This document shows positions 1 through 21,402 of a stretch of DNA of 57,113 bases, piece by piece. Every line of letters starts with the position of its first letter. The stretch's first letter is position 1. Origin of the DNA: Corallococcus exiguus (lineage in GTDB: Bacteria; Myxococcota; Myxococcia; Myxococcales; Myxococcaceae). The notes under the pieces are model-generated. The model did not search any database. It saw only the letters and a program-made list of their open reading frames with translations, and had not been told where the DNA came from. The DNA is taken from assembly GCF_012985225.1 (NCBI RefSeq), contig NZ_JABEKZ010000024.1, one strand, 5' to 3'. The position numbers and the translations under genes were made by a program.

Positions 1-127
1 GGCCCTCCGAAGCCCCGGGCCCTTCCGAACGCCGTCTGGATCAACAACCCCGCGCAGCTCCCCAACTCTCAGGCGGCTGCGCACTAATCTCTTAGTTTCA
101 CTGTCTCATTCACGTTGACAGGTTCCG

Positions 128-1168
128 ATGCGGCTGAAGGCGATGCTGGACGCAGGCGAAGTCCAGGAGGTGCCGGACCATCCCATTCTGCGGATGCTCG
201 CGGACCCCAACGACTACCTGACGGGCCGCTCCGTCACGAAGCTGGTGCAGGTGTACCTGGACCTTGTCGGCGAGGCCTTCCTGGTGCTGGAGCGTGTGGC
301 GGGTTTCCCGGTGGGCTTCTGGCCGGTGCCGCCTAACCTCGTTACACGGCTACCGGCGCTGGACGTGCCGCGCGACCAGCGGACCTTCAGCGTCGCAGTG
401 GGCGGCGTGACGCGGGAGATTCCGGCTGCGGACGTCCTCCACCTGCGCAACCTGGACCCCGAGGATCCGCTCGGACGCGGCGTCGGCCCTGCCTTCGCGC
501 TGGGGGACGAGCTGGACACGGACGAGTTCGTGGCGCGATTTCTCCGCGCGAGCTTCTGGAACAACATGCTGCCGCCCGCTATCGCGTCCATCGAGGGGCT
601 GACGGACGCGAACAGCTCAGGGGCGAAAGCCTTCAAAGAATCACTGGCCCGCGAGCATCAGGGGCCGGACAAGGCGGGCAAGCTGCTGCTCACCAGCGGC
701 CGGGTGACGTTCGCCCGCCTCGACACGAGCTTCCGCGACATGCAGTTGGTGGAGCTGCGGAAGTTCCTCATGGGCTTCATTCGGATGACGTTCAGAGTGC
801 CACCCGAAATCGTGGGCGACATCTCAAGCTCGAACAAGGCGACGGCCTTCGCGGCACGGGAGAACCTCGCCGAGCAGGCGACATTCCCGCGCATGGAGTT
901 CCTCCGCACCGAGTACCAGATGCGGCTGATGCCACTGTTCGGCGAGGCGGAGGCCATCCTCGACTACGACAGCCCCGTGCCTGCGGACCGCGAGCACCAG
1001 CTGCGAGTCATGAGCACCATGCCGGAGGCCTTCAGCTACGACGAGTGGCGGGATCTGGCGGGATTTAAGCCGGACCCCCAACGACAGGGCTATCCTCTGC
1101 CAATGCCCGGGCAATCATCAAGAGAGGAAACGCCCGCTAGTAATGGTAGTCCATGGGAGTTGCGCTGA
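128..1168 (+). CDS. Phage portal protein, HK97 family
   Basis: 346 aa. The region ILRMLADPNDYL...LVQVYLDLVGEAFLVLER...GFPVGFWPVPPNLV...LHLRNLDPEDPLGRGVG fits the conserved core of HK97-type portals. An in-frame stop at 116-118 rules out an upstream extension. It sits directly ahead of the protease and capsid genes. Confidence 0.65.
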   Translation: MRLKAMLDAGEVQEVPDHPILRMLADPNDYLTGRSVTKLVQVYLDLVGEAFLVLERVAGFPVGFWPVPPNLVTRLPALDVPRDQRTFSVAVGGVTREIPAADVLHLRNLDPEDPLGRGVGPAFALGDELDTDEFVARFLRASFWNNMLPPAIASIEGLTDANSSGAKAFKESLAREHQGPDKAGKLLLTSGRVTFARLDTSFRDMQLVELRKFLMGFIRMTFRVPPEIVGDISSSNKATAFAARENLAEQATFPRMEFLRTEYQMRLMPLFGEAEAILDYDSPVPADREHQLRVMSTMPEAFSYDEWRDLAGFKPDPQRQGYPLPMPGQSSREETPASNGSPWELR

Positions 1169-1218
1169 TGGCGATTTGTTTGGATGGCCCATCCTGGCAA
1201 TGAGCTGTGGCGGCGGTG

Positions 1219-2487
1219 TTAGTCATTGTCAATGCCCATGAGTTTCTTTCGTCTTCCGACAGATGTTTTTCTCTCGAAATTCGCAACAAACGCAATAGAG
1301 CTTCCGGCGTCGTTCTTTTTTTGAGCCCACAGGTCGACAATCGTTTTGACAACCTGGGCTCCCTCCTTGGCGGCACCGACCAGTGAGCCAACAAGAAGCA
1401 GGTGCCACGGGTTTGCGTTTGGAATGACATTGCCCGTGAGAGTCGCAATGCCACCGCCCAGCGCGATATTTGTTGCGTGTGCGGCCAGTTGGCCAAACAG
1501 CTTCTGATATGTTGCCGTTAGCTGTCTGTCGTACTGGGCGAGGGATGGATTTAGTTTGCCGTGGATATATTTTGTCACCTCGAGTCTCGTCTGTTCGCTC
1601 CAGGGGTTGTCTTTTAGGAGGGATGCGAATCCGGTTATATCTTCGGAGACATATCTGTGTCGTGCCTCCTCCATTGCCGACCTGTACCGTATGATTTCAT
1701 CGGCGGCGCAAAGAGTGAGCGCGCCCTTGGCGAAGATCTCATTTGATACCGAGAAGGCGACCTCTCCGATTCTTGTCCTTAGCTCGACTTCAGCGAGAGC
1801 ACTCGGTTGGTACTGGTTTAGTATGTCCAAGCCCAGCTTGTATTGTTCGTATTTGTATTTGAGCGCCGCGCGATGATCGGGGCTGTGGAATATTGGAATA
1901 GATGAGAAATGGTCCGAAGCTATCAGGGTGCCGGTTATCGATTTTGAAACTTCCACTGCGGGCGGATCGGCAACCGTGTGTAGCATTATGTCCGCAGGTG
2001 GTTCCGTCTGCGTCCGGATCGTAATGGCCCCCGTGAGCTTCAGCAAATCGTAGTCGGCTGGCTTGGTTCTGCATATCTTGTTGAATTCCTTGTCCTTGAT
2101 GTCGCCCGAGATAATTGCGAATTTGGCGTTATTGATGTCTTCGGGTGTTCGAGGCTGTTGGGTTGACTTCAGAATACCGGCCTCTTTGAGGGCGTGGACG
2201 GTTTCTCTGAACTCTGAGTCCTTAAAGCCTGATAGCGGAAATGAGAGCGACTCTTCTGTGTCTCGAAAATAGTTGAACTTGGATGCGTTAACCCTCTCGC
2301 CGTTTGGGGTTTGAATTGTGTTGTTTTTGATAAATGAGTCTTTTATTGTGTTTAGTGTTGGCGGCGTGATGTAGATCTCGTCGAAGAGCAGGGCGAGCCG
2401 TTTAATCGTCTGCGTCAATTCTGGCGAGTTGCCCTCGCCTCTGTCGGTTATTGTCAGATTGGCTCTTAGTGGTGTAGTGCGTGGCAT
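1219..2487 (-). CDS. Hypothetical 422-aa protein. It is a low-GC, opposite-strand insertion (moron) between the portal and protease genes
   Basis: Long ORF on the minus strand in a clearly AT-richer stretch (~50% GC against ~68% around it). No recognisable motifs. The C-terminal part is hydrophobic (LLLVGSLVGAAKEGAQVV). Confidence 0.5.
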   Translation of the reverse strand: MPRTTPLRANLTITDRGEGNSPELTQTIKRLALLFDEIYITPPTLNTIKDSFIKNNTIQTPNGERVNASKFNYFRDTEESLSFPLSGFKDSEFRETVHALKEAGILKSTQQPRTPEDINNAKFAIISGDIKDKEFNKICRTKPADYDLLKLTGAITIRTQTEPPADIMLHTVADPPAVEVSKSITGTLIASDHFSSIPIFHSPDHRAALKYKYEQYKLGLDILNQYQPSALAEVELRTRIGEVAFSVSNEIFAKGALTLCAADEIIRYRSAMEEARHRYVSEDITGFASLLKDNPWSEQTRLEVTKYIHGKLNPSLAQYDRQLTATYQKLFGQLAAHATNIALGGGIATLTGNVIPNANPWHLLLVGSLVGAAKEGAQVVKTIVDLWAQKKNDAGSSIAFVANFERKTSVGRRKKLMGIDND

Positions 2488-2617
2488 GGTATGGCAGTAG
2501 TTGAGTGGAAGAGTGCGATGCTAGCAGGGGTCGACGGGCCATGTCTTCGAGGAGGAGGGGGCTGGCTGCTTTACGACAATACTCCGCGCTCGCAGAACGC
2601 CCCCATTGAAGAGGTGA

Positions 2618-3304
2618 ATGCGCAAGCCTCTTCAGCGAGCCCGCCGTCTTGTCGCCCAGAAGGACGCCCCTGTTCCGGCTAAGGGCCAGCCAAAGGTCTT
2701 CACCTTCCGGGCAAACGACGCAGACTTCGACCGCTACAACGATCGCCTGTCCGTCCAGGGTTGGCGGCTCGACGCCTACTCCGCCAACCCCGTCATCCTC
2801 TACATGCACGACGACGGCTCGGGCGGGCTGTTCGGCGCGGGCCGCACGGATGTGCTGCCCATCGGCAAGGGCCGCGCCTACGTCCAGGGCGACGCCCTTC
2901 TGGTGGACATTGAGTTCGACCAGGACGACGAATTTGCTCGGCGCGTCGAGTCCAAGGTGGAGAAGGGCATCCTCAACGCGGTGAGCGTGCGTTACCGCAT
3001 GCTGCGCTACCACGAGAACGAGCGCGGTGGTTACGACTGCGACGAGCAGGAGCTTCTCGAAATTTCCGTCGTCACGATTCCCGGCAACCAGCGCGCGGTG
3101 CGGCTGAAGAAGCACGCCGACGAACGCGCCGCCCTCATTCGCGACATCGCGGACGCGGTGGTGAAGGCGCTTGGCCGCAAGGCGCGGAAGAAGGGCAAGG
3201 CTGCGCCGCCCGCCGCACCTCCCTCCCTTTCCGAGTCCGACACCCATGCCCTTGCCGCTCACACGGCCCGGGCCCTGTTGCAGCACCTCCAGGAGAAGGC
3301 ATGA
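2618..3304 (+). CDS. Prohead (maturation) protease, HK97 family, S78/U35-like
   Basis: FTFRANDADFDRYNDRLSVQGWRLDAYSANPVILYMHDD...ISVVTIPGNQRAV matches the HK97 prohead protease pattern. Its stop overlaps the capsid ATG (ATGA at 3301). The exact start is uncertain. Confidence 0.65.
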   Translation: MRKPLQRARRLVAQKDAPVPAKGQPKVFTFRANDADFDRYNDRLSVQGWRLDAYSANPVILYMHDDGSGGLFGAGRTDVLPIGKGRAYVQGDALLVDIEFDQDDEFARRVESKVEKGILNAVSVRYRMLRYHENERGGYDCDEQELLEISVVTIPGNQRAVRLKKHADERAALIRDIADAVVKALGRKARKKGKAAPPAAPPSLSESDTHALAAHTARALLQHLQEKA

Positions 3305-4524
3305 CCCCCGAGCAGATGCAGGAGATGGCGAAGTCGCTGGGCCCGCTGGTGGCCGCGCAGTTGGTGGAGCAGTCCAAGGGGCACCGCGACAGCTACGCGG
3401 CCCTGTTGGGCTCCAAGGTGCCCGACGCCGTGCCCGAGGAGCCCCGCCGCTCGCCGATTACTGGCAAGCACATGACGGAAGGCACGGGCCTTAACCTCAT
3501 CCGTTTCGTGAAGGCGAAGGCTGTCGCGCGCATGGAAGGGCGCAACGTGGTGGATGTGCTGAAGAGCTGGGGCGACGAGGTGGTGAGCAAGGCCCTTTCT
3601 CAGGGCAACTACTCGGGCCTGGGCTCGCTGGTGCATCCCCAGTTTGCCTCTGAGTTCATCGAACTGCTGCGCAACAAGGCCGTGGTGCGGCAGGCCGGCG
3701 CCCGCGTCATCCCCATCGGCGCCTCGCTCACCTTCGACCGGCAGTCCAGCACGGGCACGGCCTTCTACGGCGGAGAGACGAGCACCATCCAGGAGTCGGA
3801 GCCGGGCACGGACACGGTGTCCCTGTCCGAGAAGAAGCTCACGGCGCTGACGGCGGTGCCAAACGACCTCATCCGCAATGCGTCCGTCAACGCCGAGGAG
3901 TTCATCCGCAACGACCTGCTGAACGTCATGGCGCTGCGGGAGGGCATGGCCTTCCTGCGGGGCAGCGGGACGCAGCTGGAGCCGCGCGGCATCCGCAACC
4001 AGGTGGACGCGGCCCACGTCTACGCGGAGACGGTGGCCACGGCGGGCGCGCCCACGCTGGGCGAAATGAAGAAGGAGCTGAACAAGGCGAAGAAGAAGCT
4101 GAAAAAGGCCAACGTGCCCATGGTGCAGCCGGTGTGGCTGATGTCCCCCAACGCGGAGACGGCCATTCTCGATGCTCCGGGGCCTGGCGGAGAGGGGACC
4201 AACGCCCTGGAGCGGGAGATGGTGGAGCGCGGCACGCTGCGCAACGTGCCCTTCTTCGTCACGAACCAAATTCCGGAGACGCTCGGCTCGGGCAAGAACT
4301 GCTCGGAGCTCTACCTCGTGGACATGGCCGAGGTGCTTATCGGCGAGTCCATGGCGCTGGAAATCGACGTCTTCCCTAACGGCGCCTTCACGCGTGGCGG
4401 CCAGGTGGTGTCCGGCATCTCCACGGACCAGACGGTGCTGCGCGCCATCACCAAGCATGACCTGGCCATGCGCCACCGGCAGTCCGGCGTCGTGGTGAAG
4501 GACCTGAGCTGGGGCAGCAACTGA
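3301..4524 (+). CDS. Major capsid protein, HK97 fold
   Basis: 407 aa. It follows the protease directly, and its size and sequence pattern fit HK97-family major capsid proteins. Confidence 0.8.
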   Translation: MTPEQMQEMAKSLGPLVAAQLVEQSKGHRDSYAALLGSKVPDAVPEEPRRSPITGKHMTEGTGLNLIRFVKAKAVARMEGRNVVDVLKSWGDEVVSKALSQGNYSGLGSLVHPQFASEFIELLRNKAVVRQAGARVIPIGASLTFDRQSSTGTAFYGGETSTIQESEPGTDTVSLSEKKLTALTAVPNDLIRNASVNAEEFIRNDLLNVMALREGMAFLRGSGTQLEPRGIRNQVDAAHVYAETVATAGAPTLGEMKKELNKAKKKLKKANVPMVQPVWLMSPNAETAILDAPGPGGEGTNALEREMVERGTLRNVPFFVTNQIPETLGSGKNCSELYLVDMAEVLIGESMALEIDVFPNGAFTRGGQVVSGISTDQTVLRAITKHDLAMRHRQSGVVVKDLSWGSN

Positions 4525-4552
4525 CCGGGGCGACGCCCCACGAAAGGACATC

Positions 4553-4987
4553 ATGAGCGCACCGCACATCAGTCAGATCGGCGCCTTCGTTGCAGCTCGC
4601 TTGAGCACGTCGCCCGCCGCGACGCCCGCAGGAACTCGCCAGGGGCAGGGCTATGACCGGCTCATCCTGGGCGAGAGCTGCGTCCTCGTCGCGGCCACGG
4701 GCTCGGTGACGGGCGGCCCCACCGCGCAGGGCTACGAGGTGAAGCTCCAGCACTCCAGCGACAATGGAGTGGATGACGCCTGGACGGACTTCGTGCCGGC
4801 CGGGCCGGGTTCGGCCTCCGTGCAGCTGACGGCGGCGAACGCCTTCATCGAGAAGGACGTGGACCTCGGCGCGGCGAAGCGGTTCGTTCGCGTGGCGGAG
4901 TCCACGACCTTGGCGGGCGGGACTTCGCCCAGCCTTCAGGCGTGCGCCTTCGTCGTCTTCGGTGGCGCCATGACGCTGCCGGTGTGA
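4553..4987 (+). CDS. Hypothetical phage head-associated protein
   Basis: 144-aa ORF with host-like codon usage in the position normally held by decoration or head-completion genes. Confidence 0.4.
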   Translation: MSAPHISQIGAFVAARLSTSPAATPAGTRQGQGYDRLILGESCVLVAATGSVTGGPTAQGYEVKLQHSSDNGVDDAWTDFVPAGPGSASVQLTAANAFIEKDVDLGAAKRFVRVAESTTLAGGTSPSLQACAFVVFGGAMTLPV

Positions 4988-4991
4988 CGCC

Positions 4992-5651
4992 ATGGCGCAT
5001 CCTGCTGACCTGTGCCTGGCTGCGACCGTGGCGGATGACCTGGGCGTGGCGGTGACGCCGCGCCTGGAGTCCCTCGTCACGGCGGCGAGCCGGGCCGTTG
5101 CTGGCTACTGCGGCCGGGTCTTCGAGTACGGCCAGGGCCTCGTGGAGTACCCGGCGGGCTACGGGCGCCCATTGCTGCTGCTGGAGCGCCCGCCCGTTGT
5201 GCTGGTGGTAAGCGTCTGGGAGGGTGGTGCCTTCGTGCCGGCCGAGGAGTACGAGAGCCACGGGAAGCTGGCGGATGCCGGCATGCTGTACCGCAGGCGC
5301 GGTGTGTGGCCGGAGACGGCACGCTCGGGCGGCCTGGTGGTGGAGGCGGTAGACAGCTTCCAGGGCAGCGAGGACAGCATCCGCGTCGTCTACGATGGCG
5401 GCTTCGTGACGCCGGGGCAGCGAGCCCTGGGCGCGTCGCGCGTGGTGACGCTGCCGGAAGACGTGCAGGAGGCCACCGTCCACACGGCGGTGCAGCTGTA
5501 TCGCTCGCGCGGCGTGGACGCCATGGTGGCCAGCGAGTCCATCGGGGATTGGTCCGTGAGCTACTTCGCCGCGAAGACCGAGGGAAAGAGCCCCATCCTT
5601 GACGTCGCGCAGGCGTTGCTCGCGCCCTTCGTCATTCATCGGGTGAGCTGA
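4992..5651 (+). CDS. Head-tail connector protein, gp6-like, with an extra C-terminal region
   Basis: The N-terminal stretch DLCLAATVADDLGV...LVTAASRAVAGYCGRVF fits the gp6-like connector pattern. At 219 aa it is about twice the usual size. Confidence 0.5.
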   Translation: MAHPADLCLAATVADDLGVAVTPRLESLVTAASRAVAGYCGRVFEYGQGLVEYPAGYGRPLLLLERPPVVLVVSVWEGGAFVPAEEYESHGKLADAGMLYRRRGVWPETARSGGLVVEAVDSFQGSEDSIRVVYDGGFVTPGQRALGASRVVTLPEDVQEATVHTAVQLYRSRGVDAMVASESIGDWSVSYFAAKTEGKSPILDVAQALLAPFVIHRVS

Positions 5652-5974
5652 TGGCCTCGCCTTCGGACACCTTCCGTCAGTCGATCACGTATGCCGTGTT
5701 GACGGGACGGGACGCCTACGGCAAGCCGGCGCTCGGGCCCCAGGCGACGGCGCGGGCTCGTGTGCAGCCGTCCCGACGTCTCATCCGTGATGCCAACGGC
5801 AACGAGCATCTGGCGGCGCACGTTGTCTACACGGACGCGGTTCTCACGTTGCAGCATCGCGTGTGGCTGCCGGGGGAGGACGTGGCGGACTTCAACCGCG
5901 CGCGGCGCCCCGTAGCTGTGGACGAGAGCGTGGACGGCTCAGGCACCGTGCGCTTTCGGAAGGTGTGGTTCTGA
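5651..5974 (+). CDS. Head closure / head-tail adaptor protein
   Basis: 107 aa. Its position and the pattern ...DAYGKP...ARVQP...VYTDAVLTLQHRVWL are consistent with SPP1 gp16-like head closure proteins. Its start overlaps the previous stop. Confidence 0.5.
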   Translation: MASPSDTFRQSITYAVLTGRDAYGKPALGPQATARARVQPSRRLIRDANGNEHLAAHVVYTDAVLTLQHRVWLPGEDVADFNRARRPVAVDESVDGSGTVRFRKVWF

Positions 5975-6402
5975 TGCGGGACATCGCTTCGGAACTAGCA
6001 ATGCTGCTAGAGGGAGCCGAGCTGGGCCTCGTGCGTCCTCCAGGTCCGGGCGCCAACCTCTTCACTTCACCAATGCCTGAGGAGGAGGGCGACGTGCCGG
6101 ACCGGGCCGTGGCTTTGGTGGTGTCTGGGGGCGCTAGGCCACAGCCCTACCTGGGGCTACGGCGTGCCGCATACTTTGTGACGAGTTGTCAGGTTCGCGT
6201 CCGCTCCGCGCGAGAGGATTTCGGTGGTGGGCAACTGCTCGCCAATGCTGTCTTCGCCGTCCTTGAGCAAGCGTGCGTAACGCCCGGTGTTAGTCGGTCC
6301 GAAGAGGGTGCTCCTGTCTATTTTGGGTCCGACGGATCGGATAGATATATTTGGAGTATGAATTTTACTGTTGGGAACAGATGGATGCCAGGAGTCCGCT
6401 AG
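5974..6402 (+). CDS. Putative neck / tail-completion protein
   Basis: ATG at 5974 overlaps the upstream TGA. The stretch LFTSPMPEE..DVPDRAVALVVSGG resembles minor neck proteins of siphoviruses. Confidence 0.4.
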   Translation: MRDIASELAMLLEGAELGLVRPPGPGANLFTSPMPEEEGDVPDRAVALVVSGGARPQPYLGLRRAAYFVTSCQVRVRSAREDFGGGQLLANAVFAVLEQACVTPGVSRSEEGAPVYFGSDGSDRYIWSMNFTVGNRWMPGVR

Positions 6403-6532
6403 TGTCATGAGAAGGGCTCCTGGCGCTTTGCGACAATCGCCACAAATGGTGCCCATGCGGCAGGATGAGTTTGTCGCAATGGGTTGCGGCTATTTCTTGT
6501 GCTTTGTGAGGCCTAGAGAGGGTCTTGGTTTT

Positions 6533-7330
6533 TTATTTCGGAGGATTCTCGTTGGGGCCGCCGATGCTGTCCGGAAGTAGAGTCCGTGCAACTTCAAAGC
6601 CTCCCTTTAGCACTTTGCGGTTGACGGGGTTCGATGCCCAACGGGCAAATCTGACGAAAATTGCAGCCACCACGCCCTTTGCTTTTAGTGAGTCGACCTG
6701 GGCTTTCAATGCAGAGAATTCACGGGTGAGCTTGTCGATTTGGTCCTTGGCTTCAGATTTATCTTTGGTCGATGTGGCAATGTTTTCTTTGAGGGATGTT
6801 TCGACTGCATCAAGCCTAGACTTCAGTGCGTCCGCTTGTTCTATGGAGAGGTAGTCGTCGGTGATGTTGGCATAAGATTCGAGTATGTTCTGGAGTTCTT
6901 GCTCTTGCTTTCGGGCAGCGCGTGCAGCCGGTGCCGCGCGCAGCTCGCCCTCTAGGTGATTCAGCCAGCTTGAAATGGCGGAGAGTAATCCATCTTTATT
7001 TGCGACAGACATGCTTTCCGAGATGTTGATTTCGCCTGGAGACATGTCAAGATCGATGCGGAAAAAGGAGCCATCGTTGTTGCTGATTTTTTTGTTTGGT
7101 ATGTTTGCGGTGAGTCGAAATTTGCTTTCGTGGGCGTATTCGATTGTTAGTTTGCTGTCTCCGAATACGGACTGTTCGAAAGTTGTCTTGAAGTCGCCAC
7201 GGTCGAAATAGGAGCCACGGGAAAGGACCTCTGAAATCTCGTTGATTAGCTGGTGGCGCATGGGGGGTGTACGGGCAGGTTCGTTGTGGCGCTGTCGGAA
7301 CAGCATGATCTCCGAAGTTGTTGCCCCCAT
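6533..7330 (-). CDS. Hypothetical 265-aa coiled-coil protein. It is a second low-GC, opposite-strand moron
   Basis: Minus-strand ORF in an AT-richer island (~6400-7330). The central part is heptad-like (ELQNILESY...LKSRLDAVETSLKEN...IDKLTREFSALKAQVDSLKAKG). The start is uncertain, with alternatives at 7306 and 7261. Confidence 0.45.
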   Translation of the reverse strand: MGATTSEIMLFRQRHNEPARTPPMRHQLINEISEVLSRGSYFDRGDFKTTFEQSVFGDSKLTIEYAHESKFRLTANIPNKKISNNDGSFFRIDLDMSPGEINISESMSVANKDGLLSAISSWLNHLEGELRAAPAARAARKQEQELQNILESYANITDDYLSIEQADALKSRLDAVETSLKENIATSTKDKSEAKDQIDKLTREFSALKAQVDSLKAKGVVAAIFVRFARWASNPVNRKVLKGGFEVARTLLPDSIGGPNENPPK

Positions 7331-7341
7331 TTAAGTGGGGG

Positions 7342-7743
7342 ATGCCTGTTCGAGTCAAAGCCGATACGGTGAAGCTGGAGCGCCTGCGCCGCTCTCCCGT
7401 CGAGGTGCTGCGCGAGCTAGACGGCCCATGCCGGGACATCGCCCGCCTTGCCCTGGACTACTCCCTCTTCCTCGTTCCGGTGGGAGAGGGCCATCTGCGC
7501 GATAGCGCCTTCCTGAGTGGCCCGCTTCACAACCTGAGCCAGCGCCTCTCCACGACGTGGACGGCGGGCTACGTGCACCCGTCCGCAGGCCCCATTCACG
7601 AGGGCTGGCACTGGGGCGCGCAGCTCTTCAACCCGCCACCGCACTTCCTTCGCAAGTCGTTCCGCCGTGCCCGTGGCAGCGCTCGCCGCCGCGTGGCCGC
7701 CGTCCTGAAGGACTTCCTCGCGCAGCGCTTCCCATCCCAATGA
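7342..7743 (+). CDS. HK97 gp10-like tail/head-tail component
   Basis: VPVGEGHLRDSAF matches the gp10-family vPvdTG.LrrS motif. ATG at 7342 is in frame with the track ORF 7318. Confidence 0.5.
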   Translation: MPVRVKADTVKLERLRRSPVEVLRELDGPCRDIARLALDYSLFLVPVGEGHLRDSAFLSGPLHNLSQRLSTTWTAGYVHPSAGPIHEGWHWGAQLFNPPPHFLRKSFRRARGSARRRVAAVLKDFLAQRFPSQ

Positions 7744-7757
7744 CAGGAGCCGCCATC

Positions 7758-8183
7758 ATGCCGGAACCCCGAGAGGCCTTCTTCGACAAGCTCTACATCC
7801 GAGCGACGGACACCGCGCCCGTCGAGGCGGACGCGCTGGATGGCGTGCTGGAGGCGCCCGTCAACCGGGCCAAGGACACGGTGGATGCCAATTACTTCGG
7901 CGGAGACGGGTACAAGCGCACGAAGGGCACCTGGAAGTCCTTCTCCATTCCGCTGTCCGGCCACGTCTTCAAGGGCAGCGCGCCCCAGCAGGTGCTGCGT
8001 GACGCCTTCGAGAGCGACGCCACGGTGTTCTTCACCATCGTGGAGGACGAGACGGCCCCCATGGGCACGCAGGGCTACCGCTATCCGGTGAAGGTGACGT
8101 CCTACGAGGAGGGGCGCAGCTCCACGGACGTCGTCACCTTCTCCGCCACCCTCGCCGGCCAGGGCGCGCCCGTCGCGGTGTAG
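7758..8183 (+). CDS. Major tail (tube) protein
   Basis: 141 aa. A good SD (AGGAG) lies 8 nt upstream of the ATG at 7758. It sits between the gp10-like gene and the chaperone pair. A longer version starting at ATG 7740 is possible. Confidence 0.5.
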   Translation: MPEPREAFFDKLYIRATDTAPVEADALDGVLEAPVNRAKDTVDANYFGGDGYKRTKGTWKSFSIPLSGHVFKGSAPQQVLRDAFESDATVFFTIVEDETAPMGTQGYRYPVKVTSYEEGRSSTDVVTFSATLAGQGAPVAV

Positions 8184-8219
8184 CCGACTGCTTTCCCACT
8201 CCCCACCCGAGGCCTCACC

Positions 8220-8603
8220 ATGACCGCACCCACCACGCTCCGAAAGCCCCTCGGCACCCGCCGCAAGCTGCACAAGCGCGTCACTCTGGACGGCGCCGAC
8301 TACGACATCTGCCAACCGCCTCTTGGCGAGAAGCTTGAACTGCTCGCCGCCGCGAAGGCCGCCAAGGAACTGGGGCCGGACAGAAAGCCCGTCGATGAGT
8401 TCGCGGGAATGGCGATGATCGCCCGCATCGCCGTCCTCTGCCTCTACCACCCAGACACGGCCATCCGCGTCTTCGATGAGTCGGAGGTCGGCCAGGTGAA
8501 GCTCGAGCCCTGGCTGGAAGAGATTCAGGACGAACTCGCCCGGGCCTTCGCGGGACCGACGCTGGAGGAGGCGAAGGGAAACTCCGTAACCACCCCGAGC
8601 TGA
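8220..8603 (+). CDS. Tail assembly chaperone, gpG-like
   Basis: 127-aa ORF directly upstream of the tape measure. It ends just after a GGGAAAC heptamer. Confidence 0.6.
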   Translation: MTAPTTLRKPLGTRRKLHKRVTLDGADYDICQPPLGEKLELLAAAKAAKELGPDRKPVDEFAGMAMIARIAVLCLYHPDTAIRVFDESEVGQVKLEPWLEEIQDELARAFAGPTLEEAKGNSVTTPS

Positions 8604-16271: not shown

Positions 16272-17441
16272 ATGCCCGACACGACAACTGACGACCTGGC
16301 GCGCACCGAAGCCTCCGCGCTCCGCAGGCAGCTTCCGCCGACGCCTGAGAGGCCGCTGCACCTATTCACCATCGACGGCATCCGCTACGAGGCCGTCCGC
16401 GAACTGGTGCTGATGGAGACGGGTGAGGTGCTGATGCTGGCCCATCGCTTCTCAGAGCGCGGCAACAAGCTGGCCGGCCATTGCTTCGTGCGGCGGCTGG
16501 CGAACCCCTCCACCTTCATGCAGCGCACGCGGCTGGGGGAGGAGATTCAGCTGGCCTTCCGTCTGCGCCACCCGGCCATCGCCACCGTGTTTCACCGCAA
16601 GGTGCACAAGGGCGCGCTGCACGCCGTCATGGAGTACGTGGACGGCCCCTCGCTGGAGACGCTGGTGAGTGCGGGTGTTGCGCGCGGCCGGCCCGTCTCC
16701 GAGGCCTTCGCCCTCTACGTCGGCGCGGAACTCGCGGAGGCCCTGCATCACGCACACACGCTGACGGACGCGGACGGCAAGGCGCTGGGCGTCATCCACC
16801 GCGACGTCAACCCCCGGCACGTCTACGTGGGGACGCAGGGCGAGGTGAAGCTGACGAACTTCGGCGCGGCGTACTCGCTGGTGGTGGGGCGCGAGGAGTC
16901 GCCCGCGAGCCTCGTGCGTGGCGACGTGGCGTATGCCTCGCCGGAGTACCTGACGCGGCAGCCGCTTTCGCCTCGCTCTGACGTCTTCAGCCTGGGCGTG
17001 CTGCTGGTGGAACTCTTCACCGGCAAGCACCTCTTCGACGTGGAGGACGTGCCGCGCCCGCTCAAAGGCATGGTCCGCCTCCAGCCCGAAATCCTCCCTT
17101 CGCTGCCGCTCACGCAGATGCAGGTGCTGCTGGACAGCTTTGGGCCGGAGGACGTCGAGGAGGCCGTGGCCTCACTCTCTCCGGACGTGAAGGCCATGCT
17201 GCATGTCGCGTTGCGCGCCAAACCCGAGGGGCGATTCGCCACGGCGGCGGACATGCGCGATGCGATGCGCGTTGCCCTGGCGAGGCGGCACCCTGGCTAC
17301 GGCCGGCAGGAAGCCGCAGCGGAATGGGCCCAGGTGCTGGCGGAGGGCAGCGTCCTTCGCGATGAGGTGGAGTTCGGCGAGGAGCGCTTCTTCCCCGAGG
17401 GGCTGGAGGCTCACGAGTTGGAGGGCTTGAAGCGGGAGTAG
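16272..17441 (+). CDS. Ser/Thr protein kinase-like protein, predicted pseudokinase
   Basis: Kinase fold with HRDVNPRH and APE-like SPEYL. The VAIK lysine is missing (FVRRL), DFG is replaced by NFG, the catalytic-loop Asn is His, and the Gly loop is degenerate. Confidence 0.6.
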   Translation: MPDTTTDDLARTEASALRRQLPPTPERPLHLFTIDGIRYEAVRELVLMETGEVLMLAHRFSERGNKLAGHCFVRRLANPSTFMQRTRLGEEIQLAFRLRHPAIATVFHRKVHKGALHAVMEYVDGPSLETLVSAGVARGRPVSEAFALYVGAELAEALHHAHTLTDADGKALGVIHRDVNPRHVYVGTQGEVKLTNFGAAYSLVVGREESPASLVRGDVAYASPEYLTRQPLSPRSDVFSLGVLLVELFTGKHLFDVEDVPRPLKGMVRLQPEILPSLPLTQMQVLLDSFGPEDVEEAVASLSPDVKAMLHVALRAKPEGRFATAADMRDAMRVALARRHPGYGRQEAAAEWAQVLAEGSVLRDEVEFGEERFFPEGLEAHELEGLKRE

Positions 17442-17445
17442 TGCT

Positions 17446-17805
17446 TCAGCGCGCCAGGGCCGAGGCGACGTGGAGGAGGGCCGCGAGGTCCTCCGCGTCC
17501 AGCTTGCGCGCGAGGTGGAGGAGGCGCCGCAGCTCCGGGGCGTCCTCTTCCTTGGGCTTGGGCTTCGTGGCCTTGCGCACGTCACCCGTGGGAGTCAGGC
17601 CCATCAGCTTCTCGGGAGACACCCGCAGCTCGCGGCAGAGGCGGTAGAGGGAGGGGACGCTGGGAAGCATCTTCCCGCGCTCCAGGCGGTTGTAGACGGG
17701 GTGCACCAGCCCAATGCGCTCCGCGACTTCAGCCTGCGTCAGGCCCAGGTGCTGACGTGCGGCGCGGGCCTCCGTGCCGATGGTGATGCCGATTTCCTCA
17801 TTCAT
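17446..17805 (-). CDS. XRE-family helix-turn-helix transcriptional regulator
   Basis: GLTQAEVAERIGLVHPVYNRLERGKMLPSVPSLYRLCRELRVSPEKLMG is a canonical Cro/CI-type HTH. Confidence 0.7.
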   Translation of the reverse strand: MNEEIGITIGTEARAARQHLGLTQAEVAERIGLVHPVYNRLERGKMLPSVPSLYRLCRELRVSPEKLMGLTPTGDVRKATKPKPKEEDAPELRRLLHLARKLDAEDLAALLHVASALAR

Positions 17806-17832
17806 GGCGGGCGCAGCGTAGCCGAGGGCGCG

Positions 17833-18180
17833 CTACCGGGACTCGGGAAGCAGCAGGAGCAACGCCCGCACCTGGGCCTCCTCCAGGTTGCGCACACGCA
17901 GGAGGAGTTGGTGCCGGGCCGGGAAGTCGTTGGAGACGGGCGTGTGGCCCATCAGCTCGTCTGGGGTGACGCCCAGCGCGCCGCACAGGCGTTGGATCGT
18001 GGAGACGCGGGGAAGCATGCGTCCTCGCTCCATGCGGCTGTAGACGGCATGCGCGAGGCCCACGCGCTGGGCCATTTCGGCCTGGGTGAGTCCCAGGCGG
18101 GTGCGTGCGGCCCGCGCGGCGTCACCAATGGTGCTGGCGAGTGGTTGGGAATGGGCCGGCTGCGAAGGGTGGCGCGCCAT
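17833..18180 (-). CDS. XRE-family HTH transcriptional regulator, paralogue of 17446..17805
   Basis: GLTQAEMAQRVGLAHAVYSRMERGRMLPRVSTIQRLCGALGVTPDELMG. The start at 18180 was chosen from the longer ORF; the true start is uncertain. Confidence 0.6.
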   Translation of the reverse strand: MARHPSQPAHSQPLASTIGDAARAARTRLGLTQAEMAQRVGLAHAVYSRMERGRMLPRVSTIQRLCGALGVTPDELMGHTPVSNDFPARHQLLLRVRNLEEAQVRALLLLLPESR

Positions 18181-18371
18181 GGCGGAATCGTAACCGAAGT
18201 CCTGCCAAGGGTGAATGCTAGAGGTTGGGTGACTACGGATGGACTCCATGAGTCCTTTTTGGTGAGCGCGTCCAGAGGGAGGGATTCCCGGGCTTCTCGC
18301 GCTTCTGGTAGGGTCCGCGCCCCGCTGGGAGGACGCATGGAAGAGGCCTGGGAGCCCAAAGGAAGGACGCC

Positions 18372-20219
18372 ATGATGCGGGGGCCACCTCCGGCCGTGCT
18401 GTCTCCTGGGGCCCAGGTGCTGGGCTACACGGTGGAGCGCCAGCTGGGGCAGGGCGGCTTCGGCACGGTGTACCTCGCGCGCTGCGAGGGCCAGCGCTTC
18501 GCCCTGAAGCTGCTGCACCTGCCGCGCGTAGGAGAGAGGGCGGAGCGCGAAGTTTCCATCCTCACCCGCCTTCACCATCCCAACGTGGTGCGGATTCTGG
18601 GCCATGGCTACTGGCCGGTGGCCCAGCCGCAATTCATCGTCATCGCTACGGAGTACGTGGAAGGGCGTCAGCTGGACGCGTGGGCCGACGCGGAGAACCC
18701 CACGGCGCGGCAGGTGACGCGCGTGCTGCTGGGCGTGGCACGGGCGCTCGCAGCTGCCCACGCGGATGGGGTGGTGCACCGGGACGTGAAGGAGGCCAAC
18801 GTCATGGTGCGAGCCTCGGACGGCCTGGCCAAGCTGGTGGACTTCGGCATCGGCGACTACGCGGGCGCGCGCGAGCTGACGGCGGACATCCTCCCTCCCG
18901 GGACGGTGGACTACCGCTCCCCGGAGGCGTGGCGCTTCCTGCGTGCTCACCTTGAGGCAAGGGACGCCCGTTACACAGCGGGGCCTGCGGACGACTTGTG
19001 GGCGCTGGGGCTTGTCTCTTACCGGCTGCTGACGGGGCGCTTCCCTTTTGACGGCGAGGACGGCGCCAGCTTGACGGAGGCGATTCTCTCCAGCGAACCC
19101 ACGCCGCCGCACGAGGAGAACGAGCGCGTGCCTCGGGCGCTGAGCGATGTGTGCCTGGGGCTATTGGAGAAGACCCCCGAGGCGCGCACGCCCAGCGCCC
19201 AGGTGCTCTGCGAGTCGCTGGAGCAGGCGCTGCGCGGTGCGGACGAGACGTGGGACGTGCCGCTCTGCGACGCCTACGACGAGGATTCCGCGACGACGGA
19301 GGGGGAGGACATCGACAGCTTCGAGCAGTGGCGGCACCAACCCCGACACCGCCCGCGTCGCGGCAAACGCATTCCCCAGAAACAGGTGCCAGCGGAGGAC
19401 GCGGCTGCTGCGGATGAGACACCGCCGCCCGCGACGACCGTGCGTGTGACGCCTGCGCAGCGTGGGGCCTTCCGCGCCTGGGCGGCGCTCGCGGTGGTGC
19501 TCGTCCTGTCAGGGGCGGCGTGGGGCCTCGGGATGTCGCGCGTCGCAGGGCCAGTCCCCACCCGTCAGGAAGTAGCGCCCTCTGGCAAGTCGTCTCAAGC
19601 TGACCGCGCCGCAGCTCCCACCGGGCCGGAGGCCACCGCTGCGGCCGTCGCTCTCCCCGCGACGCTCCAGGAGGTTTCAGCCACCGTGACGACGCAGCCG
19701 AAAGAGACGCAGCCCCTTCAGTTCCCCTCGAAGCCCGCGAAGAAGGGCATGAGCGTCATGGCCCGTGCTGTCGGCACGGCGGCGGCATGCACGGCGCTCG
19801 CGTGCCCAGGGCCGCAAGTGCGTCCGGCACCTCCTCCGGAGCCGTGCCCAAAGGGTGCTGTGAAGGCCATGGCGAAGCTGGGCATCGACATTGGAGACAG
19901 GCACGAAGCCGTTTTCACCCGTGACCGCCCGCAATTCATTTCTGTTCGGGAAGGCCCTGCCCAGGTGTTCTTGTACGGCGATTGGGAGGAAATGCCGCAC
20001 GGGACAGTTCTGTCTGGTCGGCTAATCGTGCGAGACCGCGTTTACGGGCGACTCACCTCGGCGACTACGCCAAAGGGCGAGAGTTTTCCTGTCTGCCTGG
20101 AGGTCTACGACGTGAAAGACGGGGAACGAGGAATGGCACGCGAGCCCGGAAACGACTCACCTTCCAATGGCCGTATCTTCACGAGCGAATACGTGAGGGC
20201 GGTGAGCGAGTTTGAGTAA
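18372..20219 (+). CDS. Ser/Thr protein kinase, catalytically competent, with a transmembrane segment and a C-terminal extracytoplasmic domain
   Basis: GQGGFGTVY, FALK, HRDVKEANV, DFG and SPE motifs are all present. A Pro/acidic linker leads to a transmembrane helix (AWAALAVVLVLSGAAWGLGM) and a ~200-aa C-terminal domain. Confidence 0.8.
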   Translation: MMRGPPPAVLSPGAQVLGYTVERQLGQGGFGTVYLARCEGQRFALKLLHLPRVGERAEREVSILTRLHHPNVVRILGHGYWPVAQPQFIVIATEYVEGRQLDAWADAENPTARQVTRVLLGVARALAAAHADGVVHRDVKEANVMVRASDGLAKLVDFGIGDYAGARELTADILPPGTVDYRSPEAWRFLRAHLEARDARYTAGPADDLWALGLVSYRLLTGRFPFDGEDGASLTEAILSSEPTPPHEENERVPRALSDVCLGLLEKTPEARTPSAQVLCESLEQALRGADETWDVPLCDAYDEDSATTEGEDIDSFEQWRHQPRHRPRRGKRIPQKQVPAEDAAAADETPPPATTVRVTPAQRGAFRAWAALAVVLVLSGAAWGLGMSRVAGPVPTRQEVAPSGKSSQADRAAAPTGPEATAAAVALPATLQEVSATVTTQPKETQPLQFPSKPAKKGMSVMARAVGTAAACTALACPGPQVRPAPPPEPCPKGAVKAMAKLGIDIGDRHEAVFTRDRPQFISVREGPAQVFLYGDWEEMPHGTVLSGRLIVRDRVYGRLTSATTPKGESFPVCLEVYDVKDGERGMAREPGNDSPSNGRIFTSEYVRAVSEFE

Positions 20220-20245
20220 CAGCACCACCTGGGAGTAATCGCCGA

Positions 20246-21160
20246 GTGTCATCTTCTTCTTTCGTCGTGCTCCTGGGCCTGCTGTTCGTGGCCGAAACGG
20301 CCGTCGCTCAGTCAGAGGGTTCAGCGTCGGTGCCGGGCGCACGACGCATCGAATTGTCGCCGGACGATGTTCAAGTCGCCCCCGAGATCGCGATCAGCTC
20401 TGGACTCTCGACGGCTCTCTTCTTCGATTCCGACCTGATGCGCGACAGTGTCGAGTTGGAGGGGCGAGATCGCTTTGCACTGGTGGATGTGGGGCAAGCC
20501 ACAATCCGACTGGTGCCTTCGTCGCGTGTAGCTCCAGGCGAGCGGTTTCGTCTGGTCGTGCGATTCAGGGATGGCGCAGCCCCCTTGAGTGCATTCTTCC
20601 TTTTGCGGATCCATCCGGCAAAGGCCGAGTCTCTCATTGAGGTCTATCGCGGAAAGCGGACGATTGAGACGTACCAGCAGGAAGCCCGCGAGGCGCATGC
20701 GGAATTGCTGCGCTGCCAAAATGAGAACGCAAGACTGATGGCCGAGCACGATGCTCCGGGAGGGCTGGCGGGCCTGATCTCCACCGGAGGAATGGACGAG
20801 CGTGGTGTGGCCGGGCAAGTCGTGACCCTTGAGTTCTCCCAAGTCTCTGGGAGTGACCTGACGGCCTCTTACATCACGAGCTATCGCTCCACTACGGGCG
20901 TAGCGGTGGACATCAAGTTGGACGTGAAGGCCGGGGCTCAGCCATGGCTCGCGAAGGGCGCAACGCTCAAAGGCAAGGCTGGCGTGGAGTTGAAGGTGAT
21001 CCGCGTATGGCAGCGAATGCCAATTCCAGGAGGAAACGTCGGTCGGGTTGTTGTGGAAGCCGAGGCCTCACCAGAAACAACCCGAGGGCCCTTCTCACTC
21101 AAGCTCTGGGAGGAAGATGGGTCGCGTACTGTCGTGTTTGGCAACGTGATGTTCCCCTAA
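20246..21160 (+). CDS. Secreted protein resembling the Myxococcus kinase-associated paralogous family (TIGR02268/DUF2381-like)
   Basis: Signal peptide (MSSSSFVVLLGLLFVAETAVA). It is ~300 aa and lies directly downstream of a Ser/Thr kinase, as members of that family usually do. The family assignment is made from memory. Confidence 0.4.
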   Translation: MSSSSFVVLLGLLFVAETAVAQSEGSASVPGARRIELSPDDVQVAPEIAISSGLSTALFFDSDLMRDSVELEGRDRFALVDVGQATIRLVPSSRVAPGERFRLVVRFRDGAAPLSAFFLLRIHPAKAESLIEVYRGKRTIETYQQEAREAHAELLRCQNENARLMAEHDAPGGLAGLISTGGMDERGVAGQVVTLEFSQVSGSDLTASYITSYRSTTGVAVDIKLDVKAGAQPWLAKGATLKGKAGVELKVIRVWQRMPIPGGNVGRVVVEAEASPETTRGPFSLKLWEEDGSRTVVFGNVMFP

Positions 21161-21303
21161 GGGAGCCCGTTGCTGAGTCCTCGCCGTTGCCTGCTGCGCA
21201 GTAACGCAGCGGTAACGCAGTCGAGTGGACTGGTCTGGACGCGCCTGGACGCAGCAGGGTACGGTATCCACAGGGCAGGTGGGGCGTAACCCCTCGGAAG
21301 TAT

Positions 21304-21402
21304 TGGCGGTAGGGCACGGGAATCGAACTCGCCAGGGACTGCTCTCGCAGCCCCTCACCGGTTTTGAAGACCGGGCCGGCCACCAGGTCCGGAGGCCCTA
21401 CC
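21304..21402 (-). tRNA. selC: tRNA-Sec (selC), anticodon UCA
   Basis: Hand fold of the minus strand gives an 8-bp acceptor stem (GGTAGGGC/GCCCTACC), G73, an encoded CCA, a 7-nt anticodon loop cTTCAaa, a long variable arm (8-bp stem plus GAGA loop) and a T arm (G-TTCGATT-C). This is the bacterial 8/5 Sec geometry. Confidence 0.55.

Follow-up and report, generated by a model that had tools for sequence, protein, structure and literature searches.

We describe here orf422, a 422-codon open reading frame (ORF) of the prophage at the start of a 57,113-nucleotide (nt) stretch of Corallococcus exiguus DNA (contig NZ_JABEKZ010000024.1; the whole stretch is hereafter called the window), where it lies on the minus strand between the portal and prohead protease genes. 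We conclude with high confidence that orf422 is horizontally acquired cargo, a moron, of one of two hypervariable slots carried by HK97-like temperate phages of Corallococcus and Myxococcus. Taken together, these slots are a phage-borne defence hotspot of the P2/P4 type, and we lean towards the view that orf422 itself, expressed in the lysogen, acts against phages as a single-protein system. The host of the prophage is C. exiguus, not Myxococcus.

Two cargo slots and the prophages that carry them

The slots and their occupants in the window are the following (guanine plus cytosine content is given as GC, amino acids as aa).

1115..2599: cargo slot 1, an island at 52% GC
1219..2487, minus strand: orf422, a 422-aa ORF with an ATG start, the cargo gene, belonging to an unnamed superfamily
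6241..7321: cargo slot 2, at 51% GC, between the tail terminator and tail tube genes, placed by the break in homology to sister prophages
6533..7330, minus strand: orf265, the second cargo gene, at 51% GC, encoding a 265-aa coiled-coil protein

Sister prophages were found by a capsid-based scan with one genome taken per species, and four close relatives (L005 to L008, from C. exercitus, C. coralloides with two copies, and C. praedator) have DNA about 85-92% identical to the window on either side of the slots. Homology to all four ends at position 1114, returns at about 2599, ends again at about 6242 and returns at about 7321, and the slot DNA of each is unrelated and of different length, stands at the exact same positions and keeps its boundaries within a few nt. 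BLAST comparison with these sisters and junction alignments place the left edge of slot 1 where the conserved part of the portal gene closes with the codons for ...PMPGQ at 1114, and the right edge about 20 nt ahead of the protease ATG, at the conserved ribosome-binding-site block CCCCCATTGAAGAGGTGAATG (2600-2620). A further eight close relatives, one of which is the same element as L008, came from IMG/VR, and in seven mosaic Myxococcus relatives low-GC DNA occupies precisely these two positions.

Our tally of 19 non-redundant prophages, that of the window included, covers 37 slots; these hold 50 cargo ORFs with 100 aa or more, which fall into 41 unrelated BLAST clusters and run antisense to the structural operon in 44 cases. 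The slots have a GC of 0.47-0.56 in phages of 63-70% GC. Slot 1 measures 908-3092 bp and is never empty in any relative, so we regard it as a site of replacement and not of simple addition; slot 2 is nearly empty in L023 only (536 bp, 61% GC). The relatives are complete phage-like elements with a VapE-like primase, a sigma factor, a large terminase (TerL) and a 441-aa portal, and none of the 18 carries orf422, which is present in the window prophage only, other cargo being found in its place.

The composition of orf422 tells the same story. Its GC is 0.507 as compared to 0.66-0.67 in its neighbours, and its GC at third codon positions (GC3) is 0.586 against 0.84 for the portal, 0.83 for the protease and 0.92 for the capsid gene; relative to 30 other genes called with confidence in the window, these values correspond to z-scores of -8.6 for GC and -6.6 for GC3. 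The GC profile falls from about 0.66 to about 0.50 over roughly 1100-2600, and orf422 and orf265 are the only compositional outliers within the 57 kb. The original prediction, made from the DNA letters, had placed an opposite-strand 422-aa gene in an island of about 50% GC at 1169-2500 and had taken it for a moron that the phage gained independently of its other genes. The gene and its island are confirmed, the ORF falling inside that interval, and separate acquisition is borne out by the four sisters with their roughly 90% identical flanks and unrelated slot DNA, the same picture being found across the 19 prophages. Codon usage and GC no different from those of the flanking genes, or a structure match to a conserved phage structural protein, would have spoken against the prediction; the composition is strongly deviant, and no fold search gave a significant match to a phage structural protein.

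Among 20 cargo proteins scanned with PADLOC, nine matched a defence model, a share given here as a raw fraction of the occupants scanned. The defence-related cargo of the relatives is as follows.

Slot 1 of L007 and L008: Shedu SduA (PF14082; PADLOC 1.5e-12)
Cargo of relatives: a GmrSD_N/NsnA-like protein (1e-26) with an FRG/PDC-S15 partner (3e-48)
Cargo of relatives: a ParA-like ATPase, PDC-M28B, matching to the P-loop only
Cargo of relatives: PifA (3e-78)
Cargo of relatives: an Mrr-like type IV restriction enzyme, mREase_IV/PDC-S02 (1e-15)
Cargo of relatives: a REase_II-like protein (6e-7)
Cargo of relatives: PD-T7-4 (4e-6, a weak match)

The second cargo protein of the window, orf265, gave low-complexity coiled-coil matches only, and a word-indexed search returned no relative of it besides itself.

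We note that the uniform GC of 47-56% and the predominantly antisense orientation of the cargo, whatever its family, suggest a common low-GC gene pool or selection, for instance for promoter function or silencing. Several prophages of this family may share a genome and hold different cargo in both slots, as do L006 and L007 in C. coralloides KYC2213 and L022, L023 and L027 in a single genome (IMG genome 2832125735). The mosaic relatives L009 to L011 and L028 to L031 share with the window 86% of portal aa, 73-79% of protease, about 62-65% of tail terminator and about 85% of tube, and their capsid is only 34% identical to that of the window; given this low identity of the major capsid protein, it appears that the capsid gene was exchanged while both cargo slots were kept. 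Of these, L009 (BNCN01000010.1) is labelled Comamonas sp. KCTC 72670, and since its portal is 87% identical to myxobacterial ones and its GC is 66%, the label may reflect a mislabelled or contaminated assembly, or a wider host range of the phage group. Myxococcus xanthus AM003 (L010:7637-9875) has its prohead protease gene in two parts, of which 7637-7921 encodes residues 1-95 and 9624-9875 residues 95-178; the roughly 1.7 kb between them is not low in GC and may be an insertion sequence (IS) element, an intron-like or another insertion. The early or regulatory genes of the phage may include a third variable region: the relatives have extra low-GC ORFs (L006:45-699, L007:17-331, L005:11-241, L008:712-1014 and L008:2434-2766) upstream of the gene for the VapE-like primase and close to that for the sigma factor.

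The plus-strand genes of the window from 128 to about 15.3 kb make up an HK97-like siphovirus morphogenesis module, in the order portal, protease, capsid, connectors, tail terminator, tail tube, an 893-aa ORF, a tail protein with fn3 domains and an M15 endolysin. The anchors of the slots and the spacers on either side of orf422 are these.

128..1168, plus strand: portal gene (Phage_portal, E 1.9e-37), 5'-truncated, 346 aa as compared to about 441 aa in relatives
1169..1218: convergent spacer from the portal stop to the orf422 stop, holding the palindrome GGATGGCCCATCC (1182-1194)
2488..2617: divergent intergenic region between the orf422 and protease starts
2618..3304, plus strand: prohead serine protease gene (Peptidase_S78, 2.6e-06, above the Pfam cut-off), the right anchor of slot 1
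3301-4524, plus strand: HK97-type capsid gene (Phage_capsid)
5974-6402, plus strand: tail terminator gene, the left anchor of slot 2
7557-8183, plus strand: tail tube gene, the right anchor of slot 2

The final 17 or so portal codons (SSREETPASNGSPWELR) are slot-specific sequence. Similarity to all related prophages starts only at about position 127, corresponding to about codon 97 of the 441-aa portal, and nt 1-127 of the window match nothing among the DNA fetched for comparison. At this contig end either the prophage is defective, being truncated or interrupted within the portal, or the assembly broke at an inserted repeat. The 893-aa ORF, in the tape-measure position, has no Pfam match. Downstream of the phage module are host-type genes and a selenocysteine tRNA (tRNA-Sec) gene; past the endolysin, 16272-21402 contains two Ser/Thr protein kinase genes and, where GC dips slightly to about 60-62%, a DUF2381 gene, and the tRNA-Sec gene is at 21304-21402 on the minus strand.

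In the divergent intergenic region, 2488-2599 shows no conservation in relatives; it is cargo-specific DNA that would carry the promoter of orf422. Folding of the RNA of both orf422 spacers gave unremarkable structures, an Rfam scan of window positions 1-8500 found nothing, and megablast of window positions 1-8200 against phages likewise found nothing. No direct or inverted repeats, attachment (att) sites or target-site duplications were found flanking the island. A homing endonuclease or transposable insertion was considered as the origin of the island and rejected, there being no nuclease or transposase domain and no flanking repeats around it.

The orf422 protein and its superfamily

In GenBank the product of orf422 is WP_169830228.1, a “hypothetical protein” of 399 aa that begins at a TTG at codon 24. 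Homologs, and a distant branch of the superfamily as well, conserve the first 23 residues of the 422-aa form, which make up the first beta-strand in an AlphaFold2 (AF2) model; because of this conservation and the predicted strand we prefer the 422-aa form, and the GenBank TTG start is probably wrong. The probability that 422 codons would stay open by chance at the composition of orf422 is about 9e-9.

A word-indexed search returned five relatives only, from Pyxidicoccus, Sorangium and metagenomes, to which its profile version added one protein; the homologs are 46-53% identical across their full length. An exhaustive hidden Markov model (HMM) search raised the superfamily, counted as clusters at 50% identity, to 201 cluster representatives at E<1e-3, of which 68 reach E<1e-30. 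In a 49-sequence alignment R269 and R276 (nt 1660-1683) are invariant, and 11 more positions are at least 90% conserved, among them K29, L31, L33, D36, D132, P198, G241, W296 and G332. Homology of the distant branch to the orf422 family extends from end to end (hhalign probability 100%, E 1e-44), with the motif LKRxxLxFDE common to both, and it follows that the two-domain architecture is fixed, not modular. The idea of a modular sensor swap was accordingly dropped, the seeming “C-terminal domain only” relatives being divergent full-length homologs. When the longer and divergent relatives were scanned against Pfam for domain fusions, one HEAT_2 match and noise were returned.

The AF2 model was built on the 49-sequence alignment and has a mean predicted local distance difference test (pLDDT) of 86.2 and a predicted template modelling (pTM) score of 0.84, an earlier run with a 6-sequence alignment having been unusable (pLDDT 41). 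It divides the protein as follows.

1888..2487, minus strand: N-terminal alpha/beta domain, residues 1-200, predicted to be Rossmann-like, with the signatures LKRxxLxFDE (residues 28-37, nt 2377-2406) and DxxDxxF (residues 129-135)
1240..1881, minus strand: C-terminal all-helical domain, residues 203-416, from the AF2 model and the alignment, containing R269 and R276
1369..1488, minus strand: glycine-zipper-like helical hairpin, residues 334-373 (LAAHATNIALGGGIATLTGNVIPNANPWHLLLVGSLVGAA), from the family alignment

Within the C-terminal domain, a 46-residue helix (298-343) leads into the stretch in which the model is least confident, the hairpin having the lowest values (pLDDT 52-59, roughly residues 341-370). 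The hairpin is conserved throughout the family, and both of its arms have small-xxx-small repeats, reading G-G-x-[AG]-G-G-L-L-G-x-I-I-P-N ... W-x-L-L-L-G-A-L-A-G-A-x-K-E, and helices containing K/R residues flank it. We regard it as a putative membrane-active or oligomerisation element. It is moderately hydrophobic and Gly/Ala-rich, with a Kyte-Doolittle value of 1.0-1.4 over 19 residues, and the hydrophobic C-terminal segment reported in the original prediction therefore stands in the form of this hairpin only: there is no classic transmembrane (TM) helix, and the extreme C-terminus is basic. Weak sub-threshold Gly-zipper Pfam matches (E about 1e-3) were obtained for 3 of the 49 members and none to SLATT models. 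Sequence searches of the Protein Data Bank (PDB) with the single protein and two profiles gave nothing below E 0.2, and Foldseek of the AF2 model against PDB and BFVD gave nothing at E 1e-3 or better and no significant phage structural match. The protein has no signal peptide or lipobox, and there is no adjacent immunity-like gene.

The relatives of orf422 are lone genes with no conserved neighbour, and their GC (0.36-0.55) is at or below that of the flanks at every locus. The surroundings of individual relatives are the following.

Pyxidicoccus: a 47% GC island in 70% GC DNA, between an RPE65-family gene and an amine oxidase gene
Sorangium: a 50% GC island adjoining AbiEii and Rv0078B genes
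Another relative: between two integrases, with an HTH_17 gene
Another relative: adjoining an IS element
Another relative: adjoining an NB-ARC/TPR STAND protein
Another relative: adjoining an integrase and a DUF433/DUF5615 toxin-antitoxin (TA) pair
Another relative: the only opposite-strand gene in a block resembling an integrative and conjugative element (ICE)

Portal, protease and capsid genes were found at none of the other homolog loci, and the family is thus not specific to this slot.

Proposed function of orf422 and alternative explanations

There are several steps by which orf422 might protect its host. Expressed from its own promoter in the lysogen, it would defend the lysogen, and hence the prophage, against other phages. 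The protein, which has no signal peptide, would be cytoplasmic; its Rossmann-like N-terminal domain might serve as a sensing or regulatory module for a small ligand, a nucleotide or a phage protein, and its helical C-terminal domain would carry the effector, namely the glycine-zipper hairpin. Upon activation, the hairpin may insert into, or oligomerise at, the inner membrane, and the outcome would be either a collapse of membrane integrity (abortive infection) or a block of genome entry (superinfection exclusion). This particular division of labour, with infection sensed by the Rossmann-like domain and the hairpin working either at the membrane or through oligomerisation, is a doubtful part of this scheme in our estimation. 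Somewhat better founded, if still tentative, is the broader proposal that an anti-phage system of a single gene, overlooked until now, is represented by the orf422 superfamily, with a Rossmann-like sensor and a glycine-zipper effector for the membrane or for oligomerisation, and that the two slots of the Corallococcus and Myxococcus prophages are a natural library of about 40 cargo families.

A number of observations weigh against orf422 being an anti-phage determinant of this kind. Searches of orf422 against Pfam, PADLOC, PHROGs, NCBIfam and PDB sequences gave no significant match, the sole curated-family match being an insignificant one to DNA_gyraseB (13 bits as compared to a cut-off of 27), and with no Pfam match no catalytic or effector domain is identified; a PADLOC (PADLOC-DB 2.0) scan of orf422 and its 49 aligned relatives gave no match, save one insignificant LeoBC. 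The hydropathy of the hairpin is below that of a standard TM helix, which makes membrane insertion a conjecture. A sigma-70 consensus scan beside orf422 found no promoter, such a scan covering myxobacterial promoters poorly, and a terminator scan there found no convincing intrinsic terminator. The family was absent from 50,697 GenBank phages and from PLSDB plasmids by tblastn, an IMG/VR scan with those family patterns that were usable found none, and outside slot 1 the family is not typically phage-borne; two members are located amid ordinary chromosomal genes. No defence match was obtained for the remaining 11 of the 20 scanned cargo proteins, which leaves room for accessory genes of other kinds in the slots. 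Finally, the truncated portal indicates that the window copy of the prophage is probably defective, and if so orf422 would bring no benefit to the phage itself. The suggestion in the original prediction of an anti-phage or exclusion function is supported by association, through the defence genes in both slots of the relatives; orf422 itself matches no defence model.

Some of these same observations would be accommodated if orf422 were a lysogenic-conversion or fitness moron unrelated to defence, altering host physiology (the envelope, stress responses, or the social and kin interactions of myxobacteria) to the benefit of the lysogen. The cargo proteins and the orf422 protein that match no defence model fit such a role, as do the two family members between housekeeping genes, and diverse moron functions are known (PMC3594210). 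We nevertheless consider it unlikely: by the raw fraction given above bona fide defence genes are strongly over-represented in the slots, the family is found repeatedly beside integrases, IS elements and TA, Abi or STAND genes, and orf422 has neither the signal peptide or lipobox of an exported toxin nor an adjacent immunity-like gene. Phage accessory slots can hold counter-defence genes too, and orf422 might instead benefit the phage during infection or induction as an anti-defence protein, a host-takeover factor or a modulator of lysis or assembly, its N-terminal domain perhaps binding a host factor. This we judge improbable, since the gene is embedded in the late structural operon in antisense orientation and would therefore not be co-transcribed with the late genes, since its slot-mates in sister phages are defence and not anti-defence genes, and since its relatives are mostly chromosomal or on integrative elements and not in virions.

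It is slightly less probable still that orf422 is a selfish or decaying passenger, whether a toxic or addictive self-contained gene or a neutral acquisition in a defective prophage. The truncated portal, the single copy in this strain only among the 19 prophages and the failure to recognise a promoter would suit a passenger. Speaking against it are the intact ORF of 422 codons, improbable by chance, the full-length conservation of a family of 201 clusters with its 2 invariant and 11 at least 90% conserved residues, a fold that is predicted with confidence, and the lack of transposon ends, target duplications and nuclease domains; moreover, the surrounding structural genes are still about 90% identical to those of intact relatives, so any decay of the prophage must be very recent. 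As for orf422 being a genuine head-assembly gene (a scaffold, decoration protein or portal accessory) whose foreign look is deceptive, its position between portal and protease is the usual place of such genes, and here the evidence effectively refutes the idea: the opposite strand and strongly deviant GC3, the unrelated genes that stand there in 18 of 18 related prophages, and the failure to find a PHROG match or a significant viral or structural fold match in PDB or BFVD leave it a vanishingly small chance. An anti-phage determinant expressed from the lysogen is, of these explanations, the one we favour.

Relation to known systems

Phage-borne diversity hotspots are a highly productive route to new bacterial immune systems and have been charted mainly in enterobacterial P2/P4 elements; the same hotspot logic is now seen in temperate phages of predatory, high-GC myxobacteria. 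Because the slot anchors are short and conserved, cargo could be harvested from genomes and metagenomes, and the roughly 40 cargo families already visible, over half of them unannotated, can be mined for new defence systems in an under-explored phylum. In addition, orf422 offers an entry to a widespread unnamed superfamily that has no detectable structural relative. Should orf422 prove protective, it would represent a new defence family and validate the hotspot as a discovery resource, and myxobacterial genetics would gain a tool to control infection by Mx-type phages. We found no description of the slots or of the orf422 protein in the searchable literature, a search by accession number also returning nothing, and a 2026 myxophage survey has no mention of Corallococcus or Shedu, the passages of it that were consulted describing no such slots.

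The closest parallel is provided by the P2 tin/old and P4 hotspots (Rousset et al. 2022, PMC9122126). Phage defence hotspots are small loci of about 1-5 kb with high gene turnover between two conserved phage genes (PMC9122126), and the slots described here are likewise small (0.9-3.1 kb), lie between conserved phage genes and show very high turnover among close prophages, many of their occupants belonging by sequence match to known anti-phage systems and the rest being candidates. They differ in being carried by an HK97-like siphovirus of Myxococcota hosts, in being anchored inside the head and tail operons (portal/protease and tail terminator/tube) and not next to cos, in numbering two per phage, and in having cargo that is nearly always antisense and of about 50% GC.

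The morons of lambdoid phages (Juhala et al. 2000; Cumby et al. 2012; in PMC3594210) are similar in their deviant GC inside a late structural operon. Like them, orf422 may be extra DNA and a transcription unit of its own that is active in the prophage, although the scans recognised neither a promoter nor a terminator beside it. HK97 gp15, the founding example, is a membrane-inserted superinfection-exclusion protein encoded inside the tail operon (PMC3594210), and its exclusion at the membrane resembles the mechanism proposed for orf422; however, gp15, a member of the YebO family, is a small membrane protein, whereas the 422-aa product of orf422 has two domains and is unrelated to it in sequence.

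At the level of the protein, membrane-active Abi and exclusion proteins (2TM/SLATT-type, PF05433, PF13441) could share with orf422 the combination of a soluble sensing domain and a small-xxx-small hairpin, and they too are stand-alone genes on mobile elements. In contrast to these, no member of the orf422 family reaches the Pfam threshold for SLATT, Abi or glycine-zipper models, and the orf422 hairpin is near the C-terminus after a long helix and has a hydropathy below the usual TM range. Since the small-xxx-small pattern is present, a resemblance to SLATT and glycine-zipper effectors is possible, as a likeness in proposed mode of action only and not as membership. We also list among the closest systems the HUP-class Rossmann-like nucleotidyltransferase fold, as found in cyclodipeptide synthases, the catalytic domain of class I aminoacyl-tRNA synthetases, NadD and PPAT.

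A moron in a phage defence hotspot is, as a kind of thing, known already, and we present the orf422 case as a solid, testable lead that holds no conceptual surprise. What is new is the phage group, the two anchors inside the head and tail operons, the antisense cargo of about 50% GC, and the uncharacterised superfamily to which orf422 belongs.

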